NCBI GenBank assembly: GCA_014239265.1
Contig: JAAZZH010000002.1
Coordinates: forward strand, 49,554 to 113,553
Source of the DNA: Actinomycetota bacterium
Lineage (GTDB): Bacteria > Actinomycetota > Acidimicrobiia > Actinomarinales > Actinomarinaceae
DNA length: 64,000 bases
Direction of reading: 5' to 3'
A program made the position numbers and the translations under genes. The notes below the pieces were generated by a model, which was not told where the DNA came from, ran no database searches, and worked only from the letters and a program-made list of their open reading frames with translations. The first letter of the stretch is position 1, and each line of letters starts with the position of its first letter. Below, piece by piece: positions 4,018 to 50,015 of this stretch.

Positions 4018-4212
4018 TTAAGCAGTTTCTTGTAGAATACGTCCTCTTACTCTAGGGTATTTTACGGGAGCGTGATTAAAACAATGATCTCTTTTGTTAT
4101 ATATGCTAAGTTTTGTGCTGCATGATTCGTCTTTGCACACTCTGCCTTGGTCAAAACTTTTAGAAGGCCTTATACCGCCTTTAATTTGACTTGCTTTTAG
4201 TCCGTCAGTCAT
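4018..4212 (-). CDS. Small basic Cys3-His protein (C-x4-C-x12-C-x2-H), function unknown; paralog of 27572..27775
   Basis: 64 aa, AAGGA Shine-Dalgarno upstream of the ATG. Shares GRVC..SC.T..SIYNK...CF.H.PV.YPRVRG with the ORF upstream of dnaK. Shared residues use different synonymous codons (GRVC = ggc aga gtg tgc here, ggt cgt gtt tgt there), which indicates protein-level selection. Confidence 0.7.
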   Translation of the reverse strand: MTDGLKASQIKGGIRPSKSFDQGRVCKDESCSTKLSIYNKRDHCFNHAPVKYPRVRGRILQETA

Positions 4213-4282: not shown

Positions 4283-6184
4283 TCAAAAATTACCCAATTT
4301 TTTTTGGTTCAAAAATGCTTCATCATTCCACTTTCTACCAAGAAAGTCTTCAACCATTTCTTCTGCACCCTTGGAACCACCAACTGAGAGAATTTTAGTT
4401 TTATACTCAATGCCAACCTCTTTTGACAAGACGCCTTCATCCTCAAATCTGCTAAATAAATCATCACCAATTATATCGGCCCACAAGTAACCATAATAAG
4501 CCGCATCGTATCCTCCCAACAAATGTCCAAAAGCACCAAGATGGTTAGTGTCGTTGGGATAATTTATTGTTGTTACAATTTGAGACTCTTGTTCAATTTC
4601 ATCTAGCGAATCATTAAAATTTATTCCATGTAAATGTTGATCAGCTAGCCCAAACGAAATTTGACGAAGGGTCAGTAAGCTAATTCCTATATTTTTTGAG
4701 GAGTTTAACCTTACGCACAGATCATGATCTAGTGTTTCTCCAGTATCAATATGCTTCGAGAACCTTTTTAAGCATTCACTCTTCCATACCCAGTGTTCCA
4801 TGATTTGACTTGGTGCTTCAACAAAATCCCATTCAACATTTGCTCCCAAAAAACGAGCAAATTTTGACTTTCCAATTCCGTTATGAAGAACATGGCCAAA
4901 TTCATGAAAAAGTGTTTCTACTTCATCAAAAGTCATGAGACCATTACCCGTATTTGGATTTGGGAAGTTAGCTACCATTGAACAAACTGGAAGGTTCATT
5001 TCATCTGCACTACCTGGTGAAATATCAAAAACCGCTGCATGGGTGTACTTTCCCTCTCTTGGGTACATGTCTAAATAAAAATAAGCCATTTTTTTATTAT
5101 TCTGATCTGAGATCGACCAAAGTTCAACATCTTCATGCCAGGCTGTACGAGAGTCTTCTTGATTAATAGAGATTTCAAAAACATCTTCACATATAGAGAA
5201 CATGGCTTCTTTTACATTGTGGATATAGAAATACTTTTTTATCTCATTATTATCAACCTGGCTCTGTTTATTCCTTTTTTTTGTAATAAAATATCTAATA
5301 TCCCAAGGAGCTATATCTGAGGGTTCAATATTGTCAGTTGCTAACTCTACTTTTTCATTTTGTGCAGCCTTTTGTAATTTAGGAACTAAATTGTCATACA
5401 TTTTTACGACATTTTCTGGACTTTTCGCCATTCTGTATTGAAGTCTATATTCTGCCCATGTATTAAAACCAAATAGGGTTGCTTTTTCATTTCTTAAAGC
5501 GACCGCTTCTTTTAAAATAGGTGAATTTTCCAATACTGCTCTATTATTAAATGCCTTCCACACTTTTTCTCTTGAATCACGAATCTGACAATTTTCTAAA
5601 ACTGCATTTATATCAGGATAAGCCATTGTCACAATGAAGTTTTCTTCTTCTTTTCTGAAATTATTCATTTCATCGATGCTCAAACCCTTTAATTGAGACT
5701 TACTCAGTATTACTTCAGACTTATCAGCTGCAATATTTTTCGAAAAATCAATTTCAAGATCAATTAATTTTTTTTCTATTTCAATTAAACGTGTTTTTTT
5801 ATCATGATCTAATTCATGTCCAGCATCAATGAAGTCTCTTATAACCTCATTAAAGTATTTGACTGATTCTTTATCCAAAGTATTTGTTTTGATTGATTTG
5901 AATTTTTCATAAAGCTCTATATCTGTTGTAACCTCTAATAAAAAATTTTCAATAATTGACTCTGCCTTATTGCTATAGTCTCTAATATCTTTTTCTTTGC
6001 TAACATCTGCCATAAAAGCTACTCTTCCAGATAAATCTGAAAGAGTTCTCTCAAATAAATCAAACAAATCTAGAGATGGGGTATCTTCATTTTTAATCTT
6101 CTGTATTTGCTCAAGACCAACTTTTAAAGTATTTTTTATATCATTTTCTAAATCTATTTTTGTTATTGCTGAATAATCAAACAT
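4283..6184 (-). CDS. M3-family zinc oligopeptidase (thimet oligopeptidase / Dcp-like)
   Basis: 633 aa, HEFGH zinc motif (LFHEFGHVLH) followed by a downstream Glu-containing region; length and layout typical of peptidase family M3. GGAG upstream of the start. Confidence 0.85.
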   Translation of the reverse strand: MFDYSAITKIDLENDIKNTLKVGLEQIQKIKNEDTPSLDLFDLFERTLSDLSGRVAFMADVSKEKDIRDYSNKAESIIENFLLEVTTDIELYEKFKSIKTNTLDKESVKYFNEVIRDFIDAGHELDHDKKTRLIEIEKKLIDLEIDFSKNIAADKSEVILSKSQLKGLSIDEMNNFRKEEENFIVTMAYPDINAVLENCQIRDSREKVWKAFNNRAVLENSPILKEAVALRNEKATLFGFNTWAEYRLQYRMAKSPENVVKMYDNLVPKLQKAAQNEKVELATDNIEPSDIAPWDIRYFITKKRNKQSQVDNNEIKKYFYIHNVKEAMFSICEDVFEISINQEDSRTAWHEDVELWSISDQNNKKMAYFYLDMYPREGKYTHAAVFDISPGSADEMNLPVCSMVANFPNPNTGNGLMTFDEVETLFHEFGHVLHNGIGKSKFARFLGANVEWDFVEAPSQIMEHWVWKSECLKRFSKHIDTGETLDHDLCVRLNSSKNIGISLLTLRQISFGLADQHLHGINFNDSLDEIEQESQIVTTINYPNDTNHLGAFGHLLGGYDAAYYGYLWADIIGDDLFSRFEDEGVLSKEVGIEYKTKILSVGGSKGAEEMVEDFLGRKWNDEAFLNQKKLGNF

Positions 6185-6221
6185 CTATCTCCTTTGAGTT
6201 TTTTATGATAGTATTTCTAAT

Positions 6222-6458
6222 ATGGATATCAAACTTGAATTTTGTGTAGTTTGAAACTACACACCTCGTGCAGTTAGTACGATTGAAGACATTTTAGAAA
6301 AATACGGACAAAAAGTTAAATCAATAAATTTGATTCCCGGATCAGGTGGGGTATTTGAATTTTATTTGAATGGAGAATTAATTTACTCCAAGCTTGAAAC
6401 CGGAAGACATACTGAAGAGGGAGAGATACTAAGTCTCATAGAAAAAGCACTTAGTTGA
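6222..6458 (+). CDS. SelW/Rdx-family selenoprotein (78 codons, Sec encoded by TGA 6252-6254)
   Basis: Not in the ORF track. Encodes MDIKLEFCVV-U-NYTPRAVSTIEDILEKYGQKVKSINLIPGSGGVFEFYLNGELIYSKLETGRHTEEGEILSLIEKALS. The TGA is at the second position of the Rdx CxxC/CxxU redox motif, and the frame stays open 67 codons beyond it. Hairpins surround the TGA. Confidence 0.8.
6243..6275 (+). promoter_or_regulatory. Candidate SECIS-type RNA structure(s) around the SelW-like UGA
   Basis: Perfect 9-bp stem TGTGTAGTT(6243-6251)/AACTACACA(6255-6263) with TGA as the 3-nt loop. Mutually exclusive alternative: AACTACAC(6255-6262)/GTGCAGTT(6268-6275), 7 of 8 positions paired, 5-nt loop ACCTC. No energies computed. 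Confidence 0.4.
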
Positions 6459-7189
6459 ACATTCCTTTCGATCTTTCAATTTTTGAACTATTTTTTATAG
6501 CACTGTTGTTATTTATTTCCTCATCTGTCCAAGGTGTTCTTGGATTTGGTTTCGCAGTCATTGCATCACCAATTATTGTCCAAATAGAACCTGCCTTAGT
6601 TCCTCAGCTACTTTCTCTTTTGGGCCTTCCTTTAGCATTAAGACTTTTTATTAGAGAAAAATCGAAAGTTAACTGGAAACCCATGAAATTTCTTATTGGT
6701 GGAAGAGTTATAGGTGGACCAATTGGTTTGCTATTCCTAACAACATTAGACCCAAATTTACTATCAATTTCTGTGGGGGTAATAGTACTAAGTGCTGGAC
6801 TCGGTTCGTATTTTGGTTGGAATGTAAAAAGAAACTCTATGAATTCACTTCTTGCAGGTACTTTTTCAGGAATATTTGGGATGATTGCTGCAATCGGGGG
6901 TCCACCTGTAGCAATTTTATATAGAGGAACTAAAGGAAGTGAATTTAGACCTTCTCTAAATGCTGTTTTTACCTTAGGAATACTGATCACTCTTTCTCTA
7001 TTGGCATTTACTGGAAATTTTGTACAAGACCACTTGGTTTTGTTTATGTATCTTGTTTTACCAGTTTTACTTGGGGTACGATTTTCAAGCCTACTATTTT
7101 CCAAGGTGTCAGATAAACTTATTGCCGATATGGTAACTTACTTTTCTATATTTTCAGGAGGAGTTGTAATCTTTAGGGCATTATTTTAA
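6455..7189 (+). CDS. TSUP (TauE/SafE) family anion permease
   Basis: 244 aa polytopic membrane protein with repeated glycine-rich helices (GVLGFGFAVIASP, IAAIGGPPVAILY) typical of the TauE/SafE family. TTG start overlaps the SelW-like stop by 4 nt. Confidence 0.75.
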   Translation: MNIPFDLSIFELFFIALLLFISSSVQGVLGFGFAVIASPIIVQIEPALVPQLLSLLGLPLALRLFIREKSKVNWKPMKFLIGGRVIGGPIGLLFLTTLDPNLLSISVGVIVLSAGLGSYFGWNVKRNSMNSLLAGTFSGIFGMIAAIGGPPVAILYRGTKGSEFRPSLNAVFTLGILITLSLLAFTGNFVQDHLVLFMYLVLPVLLGVRFSSLLFSKVSDKLIADMVTYFSIFSGGVVIFRALF

Positions 7190-7226: not shown

Positions 7227-8735
7227 ATGTTATTCAAAGCAATATTCGCAGGGATATTATATTTTTTAAGCTTCCCTCCATTCGACTACTGGTATTTAAT
7301 ATTTCCTGCAATCTATTATTTCTACAGTTCGATAATTCAAATTGAAAAAGTATTCACGAAAGGGTTTATTTTTGGAAGCATTGCTTATGGGGTAATTTTA
7401 TTTGGAATTCAATCAATTGGGTATGAGGCATGGGTTCCTTTAACAATTCTTATGGGTTTGATGTACGGCTTATTCAGTAAGTTACTTGCTTTCATAGGTA
7501 CAAAAACTAATTATAATTTATTCGCTTTAATTGGAGTAATAAGCGGTTTTGGATTATTAAGATCTTACTTCCCCTTTGGAGGCTTTCCATGGGGGTACTC
7601 TTCAACAGTTTTATTAACTGGATATCAAGATAATATCTTCTTTTACTTCGTTCCTAAGATTTTCAAAACATTTGGACCGATTGGATACTCCTTACTAATA
7701 GAGAGTCTTATATTATTTTTATATCTTTTAATTAGAAATAGAAACAATTCAAGTGTTGAGCTAAAGAGACTCCCCATATTATTAGTTTTCCTAATTGTTC
7801 CTTTAGTCTTTACAACATTATCAACAGTTGATTCTCCCATCAAAGAAATTGAAGTCTCAATTATTCAGGGTAATAGTCCCTGCCCTGGTGCAAAGAATAA
7901 ATGTGAAGATGAGAGGCAACGGATTTATGATAATCATCTCTTACTTACCAAATCTTTAGAGAGTAAACCAAAATTTAAAGATGAAATCCCAAGGCTTATA
8001 CTCTGGGCTGAAAGTTCTAGTGGGTTTAAAAATGATCCAAAGAATAATGCCGAGACACTAAAAGAGATAATTTCTGAAGTAGAAAGACTTAATGCAGCAA
8101 TTTTAATTGGAGGAGATAGGCCATCCGCTCCGGGTGAATTCGAGAATTATGGAATCTTTATAAATGAAAATGGAAAAATTGGTGGAGAATACTTAAAGCA
8201 GCATCCTGTACCATTTGGAGAATATATTCCTTTTCGAAAATACTTAGATTGGATACCTCCTCTTTCTCTTGTCCCCAGGGATATGGTTCGAGGTACTCAA
8301 CAAGAAGTTTTCTCGACTAATAAAAATGATATTAAAATTTCCACAGTAATTTCTTTTGAGGGTTCTTTTGACAGATATATAAGAAATAGTGTTATTCAAG
8401 GAGCAGAGGTTGTTGTAATCTTAACAAATCAGGCAAGCTATGGAAAGAGTGGAATGTCAGACCAATTTATATTGATGTCTAGAGCTAATGCAATCTCAAA
8501 TAATAGAGATATTGCTCATGCCGCAATAACAGGAAAATCTGCCTTTATAAGTGGAATTGATGGAGAAATTTACAGTTCAACAGGTCTTTTTATGGATGCA
8601 GTATTAACTGAAAAAATTAAAACTTCAAATACCGTAACACTTTATACAAGATGGGGGAATTATTTAAATTATCTATTAATTCTTTTTGGAATTCTCAGTC
8701 TCTTTTGGCCAAAGAACACTCTAAAGAAAAATTAG
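7227..8735 (+). CDS. lnt: Apolipoprotein N-acyltransferase homolog (CN-hydrolase domain), with Ser at the catalytic Cys position
   Basis: N-terminal multi-TM region plus C-terminal nitrilase-type domain with Glu (LILWAESS) and Lys (YLKQHPVPFGEYIP) motifs. The expected ..C(F/Y)E.. nucleophile motif reads VISFEG (codon TCT). Confidence 0.75.
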   Translation: MLFKAIFAGILYFLSFPPFDYWYLIFPAIYYFYSSIIQIEKVFTKGFIFGSIAYGVILFGIQSIGYEAWVPLTILMGLMYGLFSKLLAFIGTKTNYNLFALIGVISGFGLLRSYFPFGGFPWGYSSTVLLTGYQDNIFFYFVPKIFKTFGPIGYSLLIESLILFLYLLIRNRNNSSVELKRLPILLVFLIVPLVFTTLSTVDSPIKEIEVSIIQGNSPCPGAKNKCEDERQRIYDNHLLLTKSLESKPKFKDEIPRLILWAESSSGFKNDPKNNAETLKEIISEVERLNAAILIGGDRPSAPGEFENYGIFINENGKIGGEYLKQHPVPFGEYIPFRKYLDWIPPLSLVPRDMVRGTQQEVFSTNKNDIKISTVISFEGSFDRYIRNSVIQGAEVVVILTNQASYGKSGMSDQFILMSRANAISNNRDIAHAAITGKSAFISGIDGEIYSSTGLFMDAVLTEKIKTSNTVTLYTRWGNYLNYLLILFGILSLFWPKNTLKKN

Positions 8736-27571: not shown

Positions 27572-27775
27572 TTAAATTTTTGGTTCTTGTTCTCTTGACA
27601 AATGTCCTCTAACCCTTGGATAGGAGACTGGAGAATGCAAGAAGCAATACTTTTTCTTGTTATAGATACTTATTTGAGTTTCACAAGATGAAAACTCACA
27701 AACACGACCAGATGTATATTTTTTTGATCGCCTAACTCCAGGTTTTACTGAAGAAGCTGTTAATGTACCACTCAT
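27572..27775 (-). CDS. Small basic Cys3-His protein (C-x4-C-x12-C-x2-H), first ORF of the dnaK operon; paralog of 4018..4212
   Basis: 67 aa, AAGGA Shine-Dalgarno. 34 nt upstream of dnaK on the same strand. Shares the GRVC..SC.T..SIYNK...CF.H.PV.YPRVRG core with the copper-locus paralog. Confidence 0.7.
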
Positions 27776-35460: not shown

Positions 35461-36489
35461 ATGAGACTGACTGAGTATTCTCGTGGATCTGGTTGAGCTT
35501 GTAAACTATCACCTAGTGAGCTTGCACAAGTTTTGTCGCAATTTAAAAATCATAAAGCCTTATCTGCCAGCAGTGTATCTGTAGGTTTAAACAACCCCGA
35601 TGACGCTGGAGTCGTAAGAACTAGTGGTGAAAATCTTATCCAATCTATAGATTTCTTTACTCCAATTTTAGATAATCCTTATGACTGGGGCAGAGTAGCA
35701 GCCGCAAATGCATTATCTGACATCTATGCCATGGGTGGAGAGCCTCTGTCGGCTTTACAGTTAGTTTGTTGGCCTAGAGACCATATTAGTTTTGATATTC
35801 TAGGAGAGGTTATTAGAGGTGGATTAGATGTCATGGAGCAAGCTAAATGCTCGGTGATAGGAGGACACAGTATTGATGATAATGAACCTAAGTACGGCTT
35901 TTCTGTAACAGGAGTAGCAAAAGAAAGAGTCTTTCTAAACAATACAATTAAAGATGGCGACAAGTTATTTTTATCTAAACCACTGGGTACTGGTGTAATA
36001 TCAACCGCAATTAAAAAAGGTAAAGCTAGCTCTGAGATAATTAATAAAGCTACAACAGTAATGACGACTTTGAACAATTCTGCTGCTGACGTTGCCCATA
36101 AATATAATGCAAATGCAGTAACTGATATTACAGGATTTGGGTTATTCGGTCATTTGAGTGAGATGTTAAAAAATACAAATCTTGGAGCAAACATTTATAG
36201 TAAAAACATCCCTGCAATTGAAGGAGTTCAAGAACTAATTCTGAACGGCTTCTTTTCATCAGGAAGCCAAAGAAACCTTGACCATGTTAAAGAATTGATA
36301 ATTGACAACGCATCAGACCAAAACCTTATAAAGCTTTGTTGTGATGCTCAGACAAGTGGGGGTTTACTTATTGCTGTACCAAAAGACCAAAATATTGACA
36401 TTGTAGAGATTAAAGAAAGTATGGGTTTGGAACTTTGGGAAATAGGTGAAATAAATACTGACTATATCGAAAAGATAAATATTATTTAG
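35461..36489 (+). CDS. selD: Selenide, water dikinase (selenophosphate synthetase), itself a selenoprotein (Sec at TGA 35494-35496)
   Basis: GGAGG 35452-35456 then ATG 35461: MRLTEYSRGSG-U-ACKLSPSELAQVL..., in frame with the 318-aa ORF the track starts at TTG 35533. The TGA falls at the catalytic Cys/Sec of the N-terminal G(C/U)xCK loop. AIR-synthase-like body (DDAGV, DIYAMGG). Confidence 0.85.
35497..35531 (+). promoter_or_regulatory. Candidate SECIS element downstream of the selD UGA
   Basis: Lower stem GCTTGT(35497-35502)/ACAAGT(35526-35531), 6 bp including one G-U. Upper stem TCAC(35509-12)/GTGA(35516-19) with loop CTA; apex about 18 nt after the UGA. Not energy-evaluated. Confidence 0.35.
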
Positions 36490-43119: not shown

Positions 43120-45084
43120 CTAAACTAGACCACTTATAACAGCTGTAAGGATGAGGATTAGTAAATAACTTATTAGTCCTCCTCCAATAGCTGCGTATTT
43201 CATTGTCTTCGATATAGAGCTTGGTCCAATCAAATGGTATGCAAGAACTCCAAAAAATGGTACTAAAAATACAACAGCTAACCATATATATTTTTTTGCA
43301 CCTTCAACTTGCTTGTTAGTGTTTAAATCATACAACGCAAGAGCTGTCCATGCTGAATAAAGCACAAACGGCATCAAGTATCCATATAACTGAAACAATA
43401 ACTGCCAAATACTTGGACTTGAAATAGGCACTCCACTCATTATTATCTCCTTTTTTGCTTCATATAAATTATCTAAATTTTGGTCATCCATTAAGTCATA
43501 GGGAAGTGTTATTGCCTCTAAATCTGGAACATAAAAAAGATTCACAGCTGGATTAGGTATATTGATATTTTGAAATGCCATGTTTGTTTGTTCTTTAGGC
43601 CACGGGTACTCTTTGTATCTATTTTTATCAAGTTCTTGATTTTGTGCATCTGCAAAAAATCCAGCGAGCATCATTAGCCCTGAAACATCACCTTGAAGAG
43701 GAAATCTGGATAAAAGACCACCCTCTTCAATAGAGGAACAACTATGCAGCTGTTCAAGAAGAGGTGGTGTCGAAGTTTGATAGACATTACCCTCATAGCA
43801 ATTCCCCGGACCCCAAGGTCCAGCCAGTGCCAAATCTGTGTAGCCTGAGTCAAGAACAACATTGTCTTTTACTTGAACATGTTGGGAAAAATATAATTTT
43901 GCATCAAGCATAGGGCTAGCAACTATTCCATACTTATCGTGATTAATCACAATATTCTTTTCTATAATGTCGCCAACTCTTCCAGGTACAACTATTCCCA
44001 TCCCCTTTGCCACTAAGCCGAAACGGTTAGTAGGAGCTTCATAGTTATTATTATCGATGACTAAATTACCTATTATTGTTGTCTCTCTACCTGGAGGATT
44101 TAGTTCAGAATCTAATGTATTTGGTACAATCCCTGACATATTATTTTGCCAAATATTATTGTATAAATAAAGATGACCTCCAGCGTTGGTTCCAGAGTAT
44201 CCAAGAGCATTTCCTTCAATGACATTATCATAAATTAATGTGTTGCAGGGATAACATTGTCCAATGTAAATTCCACTATCAGGATGACCTGATGCGTATA
44301 TATTATCAAATATTCCATCAGTTGAGTCAAATGCATAAACGCCATAATCGCCATTATTGTAAACCGTTAAATATGATCCCTTGAAACCCTTTGATCCATT
44401 CCAGTAAACACCATTCAGGGAAAAATTTCTTACTGATAGATTTTCAACACTTACACCGTCTGTGTCATAAATTTGAATGCCATTTTCTCTCATAAATTCA
44501 CCATCAATGATTACTGAGTTTCTATCAGTACCTCTAATTGTTAGATAAGGGGTGGTTACTGTGACACTTTCGTTATAAACACCTGGACTTATCAGTATTA
44601 AATCTCCAGTAAAAGCATCATCTACTGCATCTTGGATAGTCTCAAAACTCTTACCTGCACCAACTTCTAATACATTTGAACTAGTCACATAATTGACTTC
44701 CTCAACAGGGGCTGTATATTCAACATCGCCTACAATTATTGTCCCAACCATGCCTTTGTTATTTGTTCCGTGATACGGGCAGTAGTATTCATAAATACCT
44801 GGTTCATCAAAGGTATATTCATATTGATCACCTTTGGTAATAATTCCGTATTCAAAATAATCTGAAGAAATTGCCTGCCATGAACCATCGCTTGCGATTA
44901 CATTATGATTATTAGAACCACCAGACTCCCAAACTACAGTTGAACCTACAGGTACATTGATGACTTTTGGCGAAAACTCATCATCAACTATCCTAATTAT
45001 TAGCGAACCCTCAGAAGACGCATCTCCATTGCCACATGCAGCCAAAAAGATTATTAAAAGGGTTAATTTAAAATGCTTAATCAC
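43120..45084 (-). CDS. Lipoprotein with cupredoxin domain + right-handed parallel beta-helix (NosD-like) + C-terminal PLDc_N-like membrane anchor
   Basis: Lipobox LAAC. Type-1 copper ligand pattern (NNHNV ... YYCPYHGTNNKGM). Repeated N/G/I-rich beta-helix turns (SVENLSVRNFSLNGVYW, NNGDYGVYA, SGIYIGQ, GNALGYSG...). C-terminal helices WLAVVFLVPFFGVLAYHLIG. Confidence 0.6.
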   Translation of the reverse strand: MIKHFKLTLLIIFLAACGNGDASSEGSLIIRIVDDEFSPKVINVPVGSTVVWESGGSNNHNVIASDGSWQAISSDYFEYGIITKGDQYEYTFDEPGIYEYYCPYHGTNNKGMVGTIIVGDVEYTAPVEEVNYVTSSNVLEVGAGKSFETIQDAVDDAFTGDLILISPGVYNESVTVTTPYLTIRGTDRNSVIIDGEFMRENGIQIYDTDGVSVENLSVRNFSLNGVYWNGSKGFKGSYLTVYNNGDYGVYAFDSTDGIFDNIYASGHPDSGIYIGQCYPCNTLIYDNVIEGNALGYSGTNAGGHLYLYNNIWQNNMSGIVPNTLDSELNPPGRETTIIGNLVIDNNNYEAPTNRFGLVAKGMGIVVPGRVGDIIEKNIVINHDKYGIVASPMLDAKLYFSQHVQVKDNVVLDSGYTDLALAGPWGPGNCYEGNVYQTSTPPLLEQLHSCSSIEEGGLLSRFPLQGDVSGLMMLAGFFADAQNQELDKNRYKEYPWPKEQTNMAFQNINIPNPAVNLFYVPDLEAITLPYDLMDDQNLDNLYEAKKEIIMSGVPISSPSIWQLLFQLYGYLMPFVLYSAWTALALYDLNTNKQVEGAKKYIWLAVVFLVPFFGVLAYHLIGPSSISKTMKYAAIGGGLISYLLILILTAVISGLV

Positions 45085-45113: not shown

Positions 45114-45377
45114 ATGGATAACAAAGTATGGGTTTGCCCAAAATGTAGTACCTCTGGTTCAATTCAGGACAAGAAAGATAAAACACGCAACAAAGAAGTT
45201 GTATCGACATCACACACAAGAGAGAAAGTCTCAATGACTAGTGGTGGACTCTCAAAATTTTTTAATGTTCAAAATCAGAAATTTTATGTAATTACTTGCA
45301 GTAAATGTTCATATTCAGAGTTTTATAGAGCTGATGTAAAAGCTTGGGAAAATATTATCGACTTTTTTGGAAACTAG
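45114..45377 (+). CDS. Zinc-ribbon protein (Zn_ribbon_13/DUF2082-like)
   Basis: 87 aa. CPKC ... CSKC cysteine pairs with an intervening GGLSKFFNVQNQKF motif. Confidence 0.6.
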   Translation: MDNKVWVCPKCSTSGSIQDKKDKTRNKEVVSTSHTREKVSMTSGGLSKFFNVQNQKFYVITCSKCSYSEFYRADVKAWENIIDFFGN

Positions 45378-48752: not shown

Positions 48753-50015
48753 TTAAAATTGAGTCTCTTCTGTGGAGTTTTTCTTAGAAAGAAGTTCTGA
48801 ATCATCACCCATAACTATTTCCCCAATAGATTCGAAATAATCCCCACCAACTTCTTGTTGATGTTTAATAGCTGTATATCCTTCTTTGGAGAGTTTTAAT
48901 TCATACTCTTGTAAGTCAACAATTGCCTTCATGTTCCCACCTTTGTAATTATTTGCCAGGTTATACATAGAGCTAGACATTGAATGAAAACCAGCTAAAG
49001 AAACAAATTGCAATCTATAACCAAATTCAGAGAGATTCTTTTGAAAATTTGTTATCTCTATATCTGTAAATTTATCTGTCCAGTTAAACGACGGAGAGCA
49101 GTTATAGGCAAGAATTTTGTCAGGGTAATGTTTTTTTATTTCTGATGCAAATTCCTGTGCAAATCCAAGATCGGGAGTATTTGTTTCACACCAAATAACA
49201 TCAGCATATTTTGCATAAGCTAAAGATTTTGTGATTGCCATTTCTTCATTTTTTACAATTGGGTAATAGCCATCAGACGATCTTTTATTACTCAAAAAAG
49301 GCCTATCAGTTTCGTCAAAATCAGAAGTCATTAGTTTTGCATTTAGTGAATCTGTTCTTGCGATAAGAACAATCGGAGATCCAAGAACATCTGAAGCAAG
49401 TCTTGCTGAAGTTAATTTATTTATATATTCATGGGTTGGAATCACTACCTTTCCACCCATGTGCCCACACTTTTTTTCAGAAGCTAGCTGATCTTCAAAA
49501 TGTAATCCCGCCACTCCTGATTTAATAAATTGAGAAGTTAATTCAAAAACATTGTAGACACCACCAAAACCTGATTCAGCGTCAGCGATAACTGGAGGTA
49601 CAGCTTTTTTTTCTAATTCAACCATTTTTCTTAATAGCGTGTTATTAATTTTTTCTACAAAATTTGGACCACTGTTTGAAGGGTATAAAGATAAATCAGG
49701 ATAAGTGTTCGTTCCACCGTTACTTTCTGCAGCTACTTGCCACCCACTTACATAAATAAATTCATAATCTAGGTTGAACATTTGTAGTGCTTGTTGAGCT
49801 GTTATCGCACCTAGCCCAGAAATAAATTGATCATCTCTGTTTAAAAGTGACCAGAGCTTTTCAGCCCCAGTTTTTGATATGGGACTAATTGTTTCAAAAG
49901 GAGCTCTTAATTTTTTTATGTCATTTGACGAATATCTTCTAGAGATATTTTTCCAACGATCTGATTCAATATAGCTCTCTATACTTTCAAGTTCATCAAA
50001 AGCTTCATTCATCAT
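48753..50015 (-). CDS. aceA: Isocitrate lyase
   Basis: 420 aa with the diagnostic KKCGHMGGK active-site motif. Confidence 0.95.
   Translation of the reverse strand: MMNEAFDELESIESYIESDRWKNISRRYSSNDIKKLRAPFETISPISKTGAEKLWSLLNRDDQFISGLGAITAQQALQMFNLDYEFIYVSGWQVAAESNGGTNTYPDLSLYPSNSGPNFVEKINNTLLRKMVELEKKAVPPVIADAESGFGGVYNVFELTSQFIKSGVAGLHFEDQLASEKKCGHMGGKVVIPTHEYINKLTSARLASDVLGSPIVLIARTDSLNAKLMTSDFDETDRPFLSNKRSSDGYYPIVKNEEMAITKSLAYAKYADVIWCETNTPDLGFAQEFASEIKKHYPDKILAYNCSPSFNWTDKFTDIEITNFQKNLSEFGYRLQFVSLAGFHSMSSSMYNLANNYKGGNMKAIVDLQEYELKLSKEGYTAIKHQQEVGGDYFESIGEIVMGDDSELLSKKNSTEETQF

Follow-up and report, generated by a model that had tools for sequence, protein, structure and literature searches.

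A stretch of 64,000 nucleotides from an Actinomycetota bacterium (contig JAAZZH010000002.1 of assembly GCA_014239265.1, forward-strand positions 49,554 to 113,553; hereafter the window) contains at positions 6222-6458 what is very probably a genuine selenocysteine (Sec)-decoded gene of Candidatus Actinomarina. The gene encodes a 78-residue SelW-like protein of the Rdx family with a probable thioredoxin-like fold. It lies in a 270-bp gap between an M3 peptidase open reading frame (ORF; 4283-6184, minus strand) and a TauE/TSUP ORF (6455-7189, plus strand), opens with an ATG at 6222, and translates as MDIKLEFCVV up to an in-frame TGA at 6252-6254, which is codon 11 (TGA-11; UGA-11 in the transcript). 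Past this codon the frame continues through 67 sense codons, NYTPRAVSTIEDILEKYGQKVKSINLIPGSGGVFEFYLNGELIYSKLETGRHTEEGEILSLIEKALS (NYTPRAV...KALS), to a terminal TGA at 6456-6458. The initial annotation of this DNA had proposed a hidden SelW/Rdx gene here, and its coordinates and sequence proved exact.

The initial annotation had also remarked that ordinary ORF callers miss the gene, and the mechanical ORF list indeed gives a 42-amino-acid TTG ORF (6330-6458) as the sole ORF in the gap. The GC content of the window is 32-37%. At a composition of 33-34% GC, stops make up ~7% of random codons; by our own estimate, a 67-codon open run would arise by chance with a probability of ~0.006. The match to the Rdx family described below (Pfam E = 3.7e-19) places the frame far beyond chance.

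Family membership and conservation on both sides of the TGA

Family searches were carried out with TGA-11 written as Cys in the 78-residue product. The match to Pfam Rdx (PF10262) is strong, as the initial annotation had anticipated: it scores 69.2 bits against a gathering threshold of 22.6 and extends over residues 3-74 of 78 and profile positions 2-73 of 74. The NCBIfam model TIGR02174 (CXXU_selWTH) is matched over its full length (profile positions 1-74 of 74) with 62.3 bits (cutoff 34.2). There are also sequence matches to seven proteins of solved structure, all Rdx/SelW-related (2fa8, 2ojl, 3dex, 2p0g, 2ljk, 2oka and 2obk). The redox motif CxxU immediately follows the first strand, close to the N-terminus, and C8-V-V-U11 lines up with the CTQC of 2fa8 and 2ojl in every column. 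The pairing of YCTQCNW of Atu0228 (2fa8) with FCVV(U)NY places TGA-11 on the second Cys of CxxC, which is the second redox position to which the initial annotation had assigned it. Across 22 aligned homologues, neither C8 nor the TGA position varies. The Cys-form Rdx proteins Atu0228 (2fa8), BpR68 (2ojl), SAV_2001 (3dex) and VcR75 (2p0g) share the core with the SelW-like protein (E = 2e-7 to 7e-6), have their CxxC on its CxxU and are its best structural matches; they differ in that they use Cys, are ~25 residues longer and are only ~25% identical to it.

A scan for orthologues with one genome per GTDB species yielded 80 loci. The 24 closest (76-94% identity) come from Candidatus Actinomarina / OCS155 single-cell genomes and metagenome-assembled genomes (MAGs), which bears out the earlier impression of a streamlined low-GC actinobacterium and gives it a name. 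The other 56 belong to further phyla, including Poribacteria, Chloroflexota, Planctomycetota, Acidobacteriota and Bacillaceae. The codon at the CxxU position is TGA in 80/80 loci, 24 from Actinomarina and 56 from other phyla, and a Cys codon (TGT/TGC) was found at this position in none of the 80. One of the 24 closest loci, L017 (NZKG01000031.1; 76% identity to the query), has the Actinomarina-type selW-TSUP-lnt block but was deposited as a Marinoscillum sp. MAG and is probably misbinned.

Conservation in orthologous loci does not end at the TGA, in agreement with the initial annotation. Mean pairwise diversity was computed for 24 of the 25 Actinomarina sequences, with L017 left out as it contains Ns. 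At codon positions 1, 2 and 3 it amounts to 0.117, 0.000 and 0.278 for codons 1-10, to 0.080, 0.024 and 0.295 for codons 12-30, and to 0.246, 0.107 and 0.465 for codons 31-78, with 0.494 in the 5' flank. Diversity is thus dominated by third positions both before and after the TGA, demonstrating purifying selection on the frame on both sides, strongest around the TGA itself.

In a large protein database we found 114 homologous protein clusters, nearly all of them Actinomarina-like. The full-length homologues read ...FCVVWNYT... and end in ...KALSW followed by a short non-conserved tail. Cluster P0024 is identical to the translation of locus L009 with both stops written as W, which indicates that such entries were gene-called under a TGA=Trp table (code 4). 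The W at both TGAs is therefore an annotation artefact, one that incidentally records the presence of a TGA in every case. In clusters P0001-P0103 the true stop is read through into 5-14 spurious residues; other entries are fragments (42-54 amino acids), frameshifted (P0107) or adaptor-contaminated (P0104, which begins MCIRDS).

The 5' flanks of loci L001-L024 contain a conserved TATGAT / TATAGT-like box ~12-18 nucleotides 5' of the SelW-like ATG (6204-6221), and no Shine-Dalgarno sequence is evident in them. The position of the box and the lack of an evident Shine-Dalgarno sequence suggest that the mRNA leader is very short or absent. The box was not called by a consensus promoter scan; the promoter and terminator scan was uninformative.

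Two hairpins around the in-frame UGA

RNA folding around TGA-11 predicts two adjacent hairpins. The downstream one, UCGUGC-AGUUA-GUACGA, is a candidate bacterial selenocysteine insertion sequence (SECIS) of 17 nucleotides with a 6-bp stem and GU in the apical loop, starting 11 nucleotides 3' of the UGA. This is the spacing of the mini-helix of the Escherichia coli fdhF SECIS, and the optimum. As a SECIS we counted a stem-loop just 3' of the UGA with its apical loop 16-37 nucleotides away, a G in the loop and covariation, all of which are found at 6266-6282. The stem is 100% paired in 15 distinct Actinomarina sequences. Its closing pair at the base is U-A in 8 and C-G in 7 of them, a compensatory double change in which a synonymous change at Pro (CCU/CCC) goes together with an exchange of Ile and Val (AUU/GUU); in addition, one G-U pair changes to G-C.

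Codon choice points in the same direction. The stem is written in codons that are rare in the window (CGT, 7% of Arg; ACG, 5% of Thr; CCC, 12% of Pro), and CGT and ACG are invariant. When synonymous codons were resampled according to the window's own codon usage, an equally or more stable hairpin was obtained in at most 0.1% of trials (p ≤ 0.001) in each of six lineages. The hairpin at 6266-6282 is under selection. A SECIS near TGA-11, which the initial annotation had expected between 6240 and 6300, is thus found 11 nucleotides downstream with both covariation and synonymous-site constraint. In the other phyla a hairpin forms on the same P-R-A-V-S codons, with its apical loop ~4 nucleotides further 3' (GCCGUCAGUUUGACGG).

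Like the fdhF element of E. coli, the Actinomarina hairpin is a mini-helix within the coding region that starts 11 nucleotides past the UGA and carries G-U in its apical loop. It differs in that the helix is shorter (6 bp) with no bulged U evident, and in that no lower stem continues from the UGA; instead, the 9 nucleotides before the UGA can pair with the 9 that follow it. Rfam gave only a tRNA-Phe at gathering thresholds, and around the SelW-like gene there was no meaningful match at E ≤ 10 either; bacterial SECIS elements are not modelled in Rfam. The Rfam models used in a recent preprint on the genus likewise gave no SECIS (bioRxiv 10.64898/2026.04.03.716425, "Actinomarina, resolved", April 2026).

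The second hairpin is formed by the pairing of the nucleotides that flank the UGA: a perfect 9-bp stem with the Sec codon as its 3-nucleotide loop, separated from the SECIS hairpin by a 2-nucleotide gap. Folded together, the two hairpins have a z-score of -4.15. We considered whether this UGA-loop hairpin could be a new recoding element and set the idea aside. It is 91% paired and includes one compensatory pair, G-C (11 sequences) versus A-U (4 sequences), in which Val GUA with Tyr UAC alternates with Ile AUA with Tyr UAU. However, the amino acids C-V-V/N-Y-T already determine five of the nine pairs, and about half of the synonymous resamples reach an equal number of UGA-spanning pairs. For its energy, most lineages give a resampling p of 0.006-0.05, but L001, L002 and L004-L010 give 0.19-0.92. 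No excess of such a hairpin was found in the 56 loci of other phyla, where p < 0.05 in 2/56. The UGA-loop hairpin is mostly a by-product of the coding sequence, under weak selection at best; there is a weak possibility that it may act as an accessory element.

Selenocysteine machinery and competing readings

The window also encodes a selenophosphate synthetase, SelD, in its Sec form, in accordance with the initial annotation. The N-terminus reads MRLTEYSRGSG-TGA-ACKLSP, with Sec at the catalytic position, and the TGA is retained in 49/49 sequences (the window plus 48 metagenomic orthologues with the N-terminus on the contig, 50-98% identity and 32-34% GC). A hairpin of 4-6 bp starts 12-15 nucleotides 3' of the selD UGA, with the compensatory variants UCAC/GUGA, CUCGC/GCGAG and CUCUCC/GGAGAG. 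The Actinomarina preprint (bioRxiv 10.64898/2026.04.03.716425) reports the Sec form of selD in only about half of the genomes, the rest presumably having Cys. This figure may be an artefact of grouping proteins by their first 20 residues, as these begin MRLT, LRLT or VRLT.

As for the remaining machinery, the same preprint reports selC, selA and selD in 84/84 complete Actinomarina genomes and about five predicted selenoproteins per genome. When further hidden Sec genes were sought in the other intergenic gaps >150 bp of the window, small ordinary ORFs were all that was found.

Decoding most likely follows the standard bacterial route. With a ribosome at UGA 6252-6254, the SECIS hairpin 11 nucleotides downstream would lie at the mRNA entry site and recruit SelB-GTP carrying Sec-tRNA(Sec), such that selenocysteine would be inserted in place of termination; the second UGA (6456), which is followed by no such hairpin, would direct termination. 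Ribosomes finishing the SelW-like protein would then probably re-initiate on the overlapping TSUP gene. The C-V-V-U centre presumably cycles between selenenylsulfide and selenol/thiol states, and the product is most likely a small cytosolic thiol/selenol oxidoreductase.

Several observations weigh against this reading. The score against the NCBIfam equivalog model NF041051 (SelTWH_Campy), 79.8 bits, misses the cutoff of 88; the gene is a relative of that group and not an equivalog member. An AlphaFold (AF2) model built with 22 homologues is of moderate quality (predicted local distance difference test score 68.8, predicted template modelling score 0.60) and lacks strand 1; when it was compared with the PDB by Foldseek, the first 21 places nonetheless all went to Rdx/SelW-related structures (probability up to 0.98, E ~0.04). 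The apical loop is AGUUA, whereas that of E. coli fdhF is GGUC. Motif searches, tblastn with Bacillaceae SelA (from loci L039, L072 and L074) and ARAGORN found no selA, selB or selC in the 64-kb window, nor did the same searches in 49 selD-centred metagenomic loci with 10-kb flanks. The presence of selA, selB and selC is thus documented by one unreviewed preprint, in which selB is divergent and falls below the profile threshold (268 versus 306) (bioRxiv 10.64898/2026.04.03.716425).

The alternative that survives best, while still very unlikely in our view, is that UGA-11 is read by a near-cognate tRNA (Trp or Cys) or through some other recoding event and not by SelB and Sec-tRNA(Sec), with the hairpin as a mere read-through stimulator. 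This reading draws on the below-threshold selB match and on the fact that we infer selenium incorporation at UGA-11 from the sequence. Yet the UGA stands exactly where the family has Sec or Cys, the hairpin has the canonical 11-nucleotide SECIS spacing with GU in its loop, a Sec-type SelD for selenium-donor synthesis is encoded in the same window, and selC and selA have been reported in all complete genomes.

It is less probable still that the gene is a pseudogene, once of Cys form, in which TGT or TGC mutated to TGA. A single base change would have sufficed, and standard tools do not call the gene. Such a relic would not, however, be expected to carry the TGA, and never a Cys codon, throughout 24 Actinomarina genomes at species level and 56 loci of other phyla, to remain under purifying selection for 67 codons past it, to keep a downstream hairpin under synonymous-site selection, or to have the TSUP start still overlapping its stop in 25/25 sequences.

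We give hardly any credence to an alternative genetic code in which TGA is a sense codon for Trp or Gly (tables 4 or 25). All full-length database homologues do carry W at TGA-11, but the same entries also pass the true stop into species-variable tails (...ALSW-TFLSIFQFLN, -PSPLT, -HIHLIFP), and TGA-11 stands opposite a catalytic Cys rather than Trp or Gly. Moreover, the 44 long ORFs of the window end in TAA (24), TAG (10) and TGA (10) and tile it densely under code 11; the ten that end in TGA, together with this tight packing, indicate that TGA is otherwise a stop here. The chance that only the 42-amino-acid ORF (TTG 6330 to 6458) is expressed, with the upstream similarity a relic, is equally negligible: the gap has no other conventional ORF, and in a few database entries (P0113, P0114) that fragment is the whole sequence, but the N-terminal 36 codons with the ATG and CxxU are the more conserved part (second-position diversity 0.0-0.024 versus 0.107), the Pfam match covers residues 3-74, and the fragment would be without the redox centre.

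The TSUP-Lnt operon and the wider SelW-like family

The SelW-like gene is the first gene of a conserved operon (Table 1). TSUP follows immediately 3' in 24/24 Actinomarina loci and in 0/56 loci of other phyla, and Lnt follows TSUP in 24/24 Actinomarina loci. Stop and start overlap as TTGA in 25/25 Actinomarina sequences, and the tblastn match to TSUP begins at the TTGA nucleotide in 23/24 species loci. This overlap implies translational coupling of the two genes; no Shine-Dalgarno sequence is evident for the overlapped TTG start. On the 5' side the neighbour is variable, being the M3 peptidase in 12/24 loci.

Table 1. Positions of the SelW-like gene, its RNA elements, its operon partners and selD in the window.
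Feature	Coordinates	Strand	Description	Evidence
SelW-like (Rdx family) selenoprotein gene, very probable	6222..6458	+	78 codons including one Sec codon, then TGA stop	Translation; Pfam and TIGR02174 scores; 114 homologues; orthologues in 24 Actinomarina loci
In-frame UGA, very probably read as selenocysteine	6252..6254	+	Second redox position of C-V-V-U	2fa8 alignment; TGA in 80/80 loci
UGA-loop hairpin	6243..6263	+	Perfect 9-bp hairpin UGUGUAGUU-UGA-AACUACACA, Sec codon as 3-nt loop	Fold; abuts SECIS hairpin with 2-nt gap
Bacterial SECIS mini-hairpin	6266..6282	+	UCGUGC-AGUUA-GUACGA	Predicted fold; covariation; synonymous resampling
TTGA overlap	6455..6458	+	TSUP TTG start on SelW-like UGA stop	25/25 sequences
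TSUP/TauE-family membrane transporter	6455..7189	+		Pfam TauE 69.9 bits
Apolipoprotein N-acyltransferase (Lnt)	7227..8735	+	Third gene of block	Pfam LNT_N and CN_hydrolase
SelD, selenophosphate synthetase, Sec form	35461..36489	+	GSG-U-ACKL; TGA 35494-35496	Translation; conserved TGA; hairpin

According to the Actinomarina preprint (bioRxiv 10.64898/2026.04.03.716425), no gene adjacency is universal in the genus. The selW-TSUP-lnt adjacency stands out against this genus-wide picture, and the 4-nucleotide same-strand TTGA overlap may have affected the preprint's statement. The preprint also lists a K07090 (TSUP) 'selenoprotein' group. Read-through into TSUP as its origin was considered and rejected, as the frame 5' of the TTG is full of TAA and TAG in 25/25 sequences; the group may be a mapping artefact of the same overlap.

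Outside Actinomarina the gene has different neighbours, with no TSUP gene close by. In Anaerolineae they are trpS and dtd and in Bacillaceae selA, whereas those in Poribacteria are unrelated. In five Bacillaceae genomes (Nanhaiella, Bacillus and Aquibacillus; L039, L072-L075) the SelW-like Sec gene is located 0.4-0.9 kb upstream of selA. Among the loci of other phyla we found no shared partner gene that would serve as a clue to function.

One could go further and regard the SelW-like selenoprotein and the TSUP (TauE/SafE-type) anion transporter as one translationally coupled functional module, in which transporter output is gated by Sec insertion and hence by selenium supply. We consider this unlikely, and put it forward as a speculation. 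Termination at UGA-11 would leave ribosomes ~200 nucleotides upstream of the overlapped TTG, and in a selenium-gated module the UGA-loop hairpin could tune the decision at UGA-11. The module could serve as a selenol-based redox partner handling sulfite, selenite or organosulfonate at the membrane. A search of the literature for a link between TSUP and selenium found none.

The window holds other small or unusual genes. Two paralogous small ORFs, 4018-4212 (64 amino acids) and 27572-27775 (67 amino acids), both on the minus strand and each in an otherwise empty intergenic gap, share the motif GRVC..xSCxTxxSIYNKxxxCFxHxPVxYPRVRG and look like Cys-rich zinc-ribbon proteins. An 87-amino-acid ORF at 45114-45377 (plus strand) with two CxxC pairs (VCPKC … CSKC) is zinc-ribbon-like too, and lies in a 356-bp gap upstream of typA/bipA. 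Finally, in a 654-amino-acid protein (43120-45084, minus strand) a cupredoxin/plastocyanin domain occurs together with a NosD-like beta-helix and a PLDc_N motif, which is unusual in a genome of ~1.1 Mb.

SelW-like proteins with CxxU are a long-known family of bacterial selenoproteins, known since 2005 and the most abundant in marine metagenomes (PMC1088965, PMC2398784). In the Global Ocean Sampling (GOS) data they accounted for 427 sequences, with SelD in second place (PMC2398784); the source organisms of the marine SelW-like and SelD sequences were not known at the time of those surveys. The Actinomarina gene resembles the SelW-like selenoproteins described from the Sargasso Sea and GOS (Zhang, Fomenko and Gladyshev 2005; Zhang and Gladyshev 2008) in its domain, its length class, the position of CxxU directly after the first strand, a SECIS inside the coding sequence just past the UGA and a marine surface habitat. 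SelW-like proteins and SelD, the most widespread selenoproteins of the marine surveys, are both encoded in the window. The gene differs from the known bacterial SelW-like genes in being tied to a named organism, Actinomarina, and in forming an operon with TSUP that is not seen in the other phyla sampled. Relative to the Poribacteria and Planctomycetota elements (GCCGUCAGUUUGACGG), the SECIS loop of Actinomarina is centred ~4 nucleotides further upstream.

Also close to our finding is a 78-residue 'uncharacterized' selenoprotein, predicted by deep-Sep and commonest in Actinomarina (59 + 35 genomes), in the preprint cited above (bioRxiv 10.64898/2026.04.03.716425). The two agree in genus, length, the single U and their standing as the commonest predicted selenoprotein. 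Judging from length and abundance, the preprint's family is almost certainly the SelW-like gene described here, with the difference that we assign it to the Rdx/SelW-like family and describe a covarying SECIS. The gene is, therefore, a correct and largely expected member of a known family, now assigned to an organism, and the Sec trait of the lineage was published months earlier. Our own additions are modest. They place the gene in a family, give two genes a SECIS backed by covariation, describe the conserved TTGA operon with TSUP and Lnt, and identify the database artefact.

The view of selenocysteine decoding itself is unchanged by these results. They do expose an annotation error: over 100 protein clusters of this gene have Trp at the two TGAs and a spurious C-terminal tail. 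Furthermore, the commonest 'uncharacterized' selenoprotein of a bacterium that ranks among the most abundant and smallest free-living ones in the sea can now be placed in SelW-like/Rdx and given a SECIS. A major part of the SelW-like and SelD reads that have led marine surveys since 2005 may come from Actinomarina. Two of the recovered selD loci have accessions with the prefix AACY02, which we take to denote GOS/Sargasso assemblies; both carry a Sec-type selD, which fits a contribution of Actinomarinales to the marine SelW-like and SelD signal. Finally, the invariant overlap with TSUP offers a lead, open to experiment, on what bacterial SelW-like proteins do.

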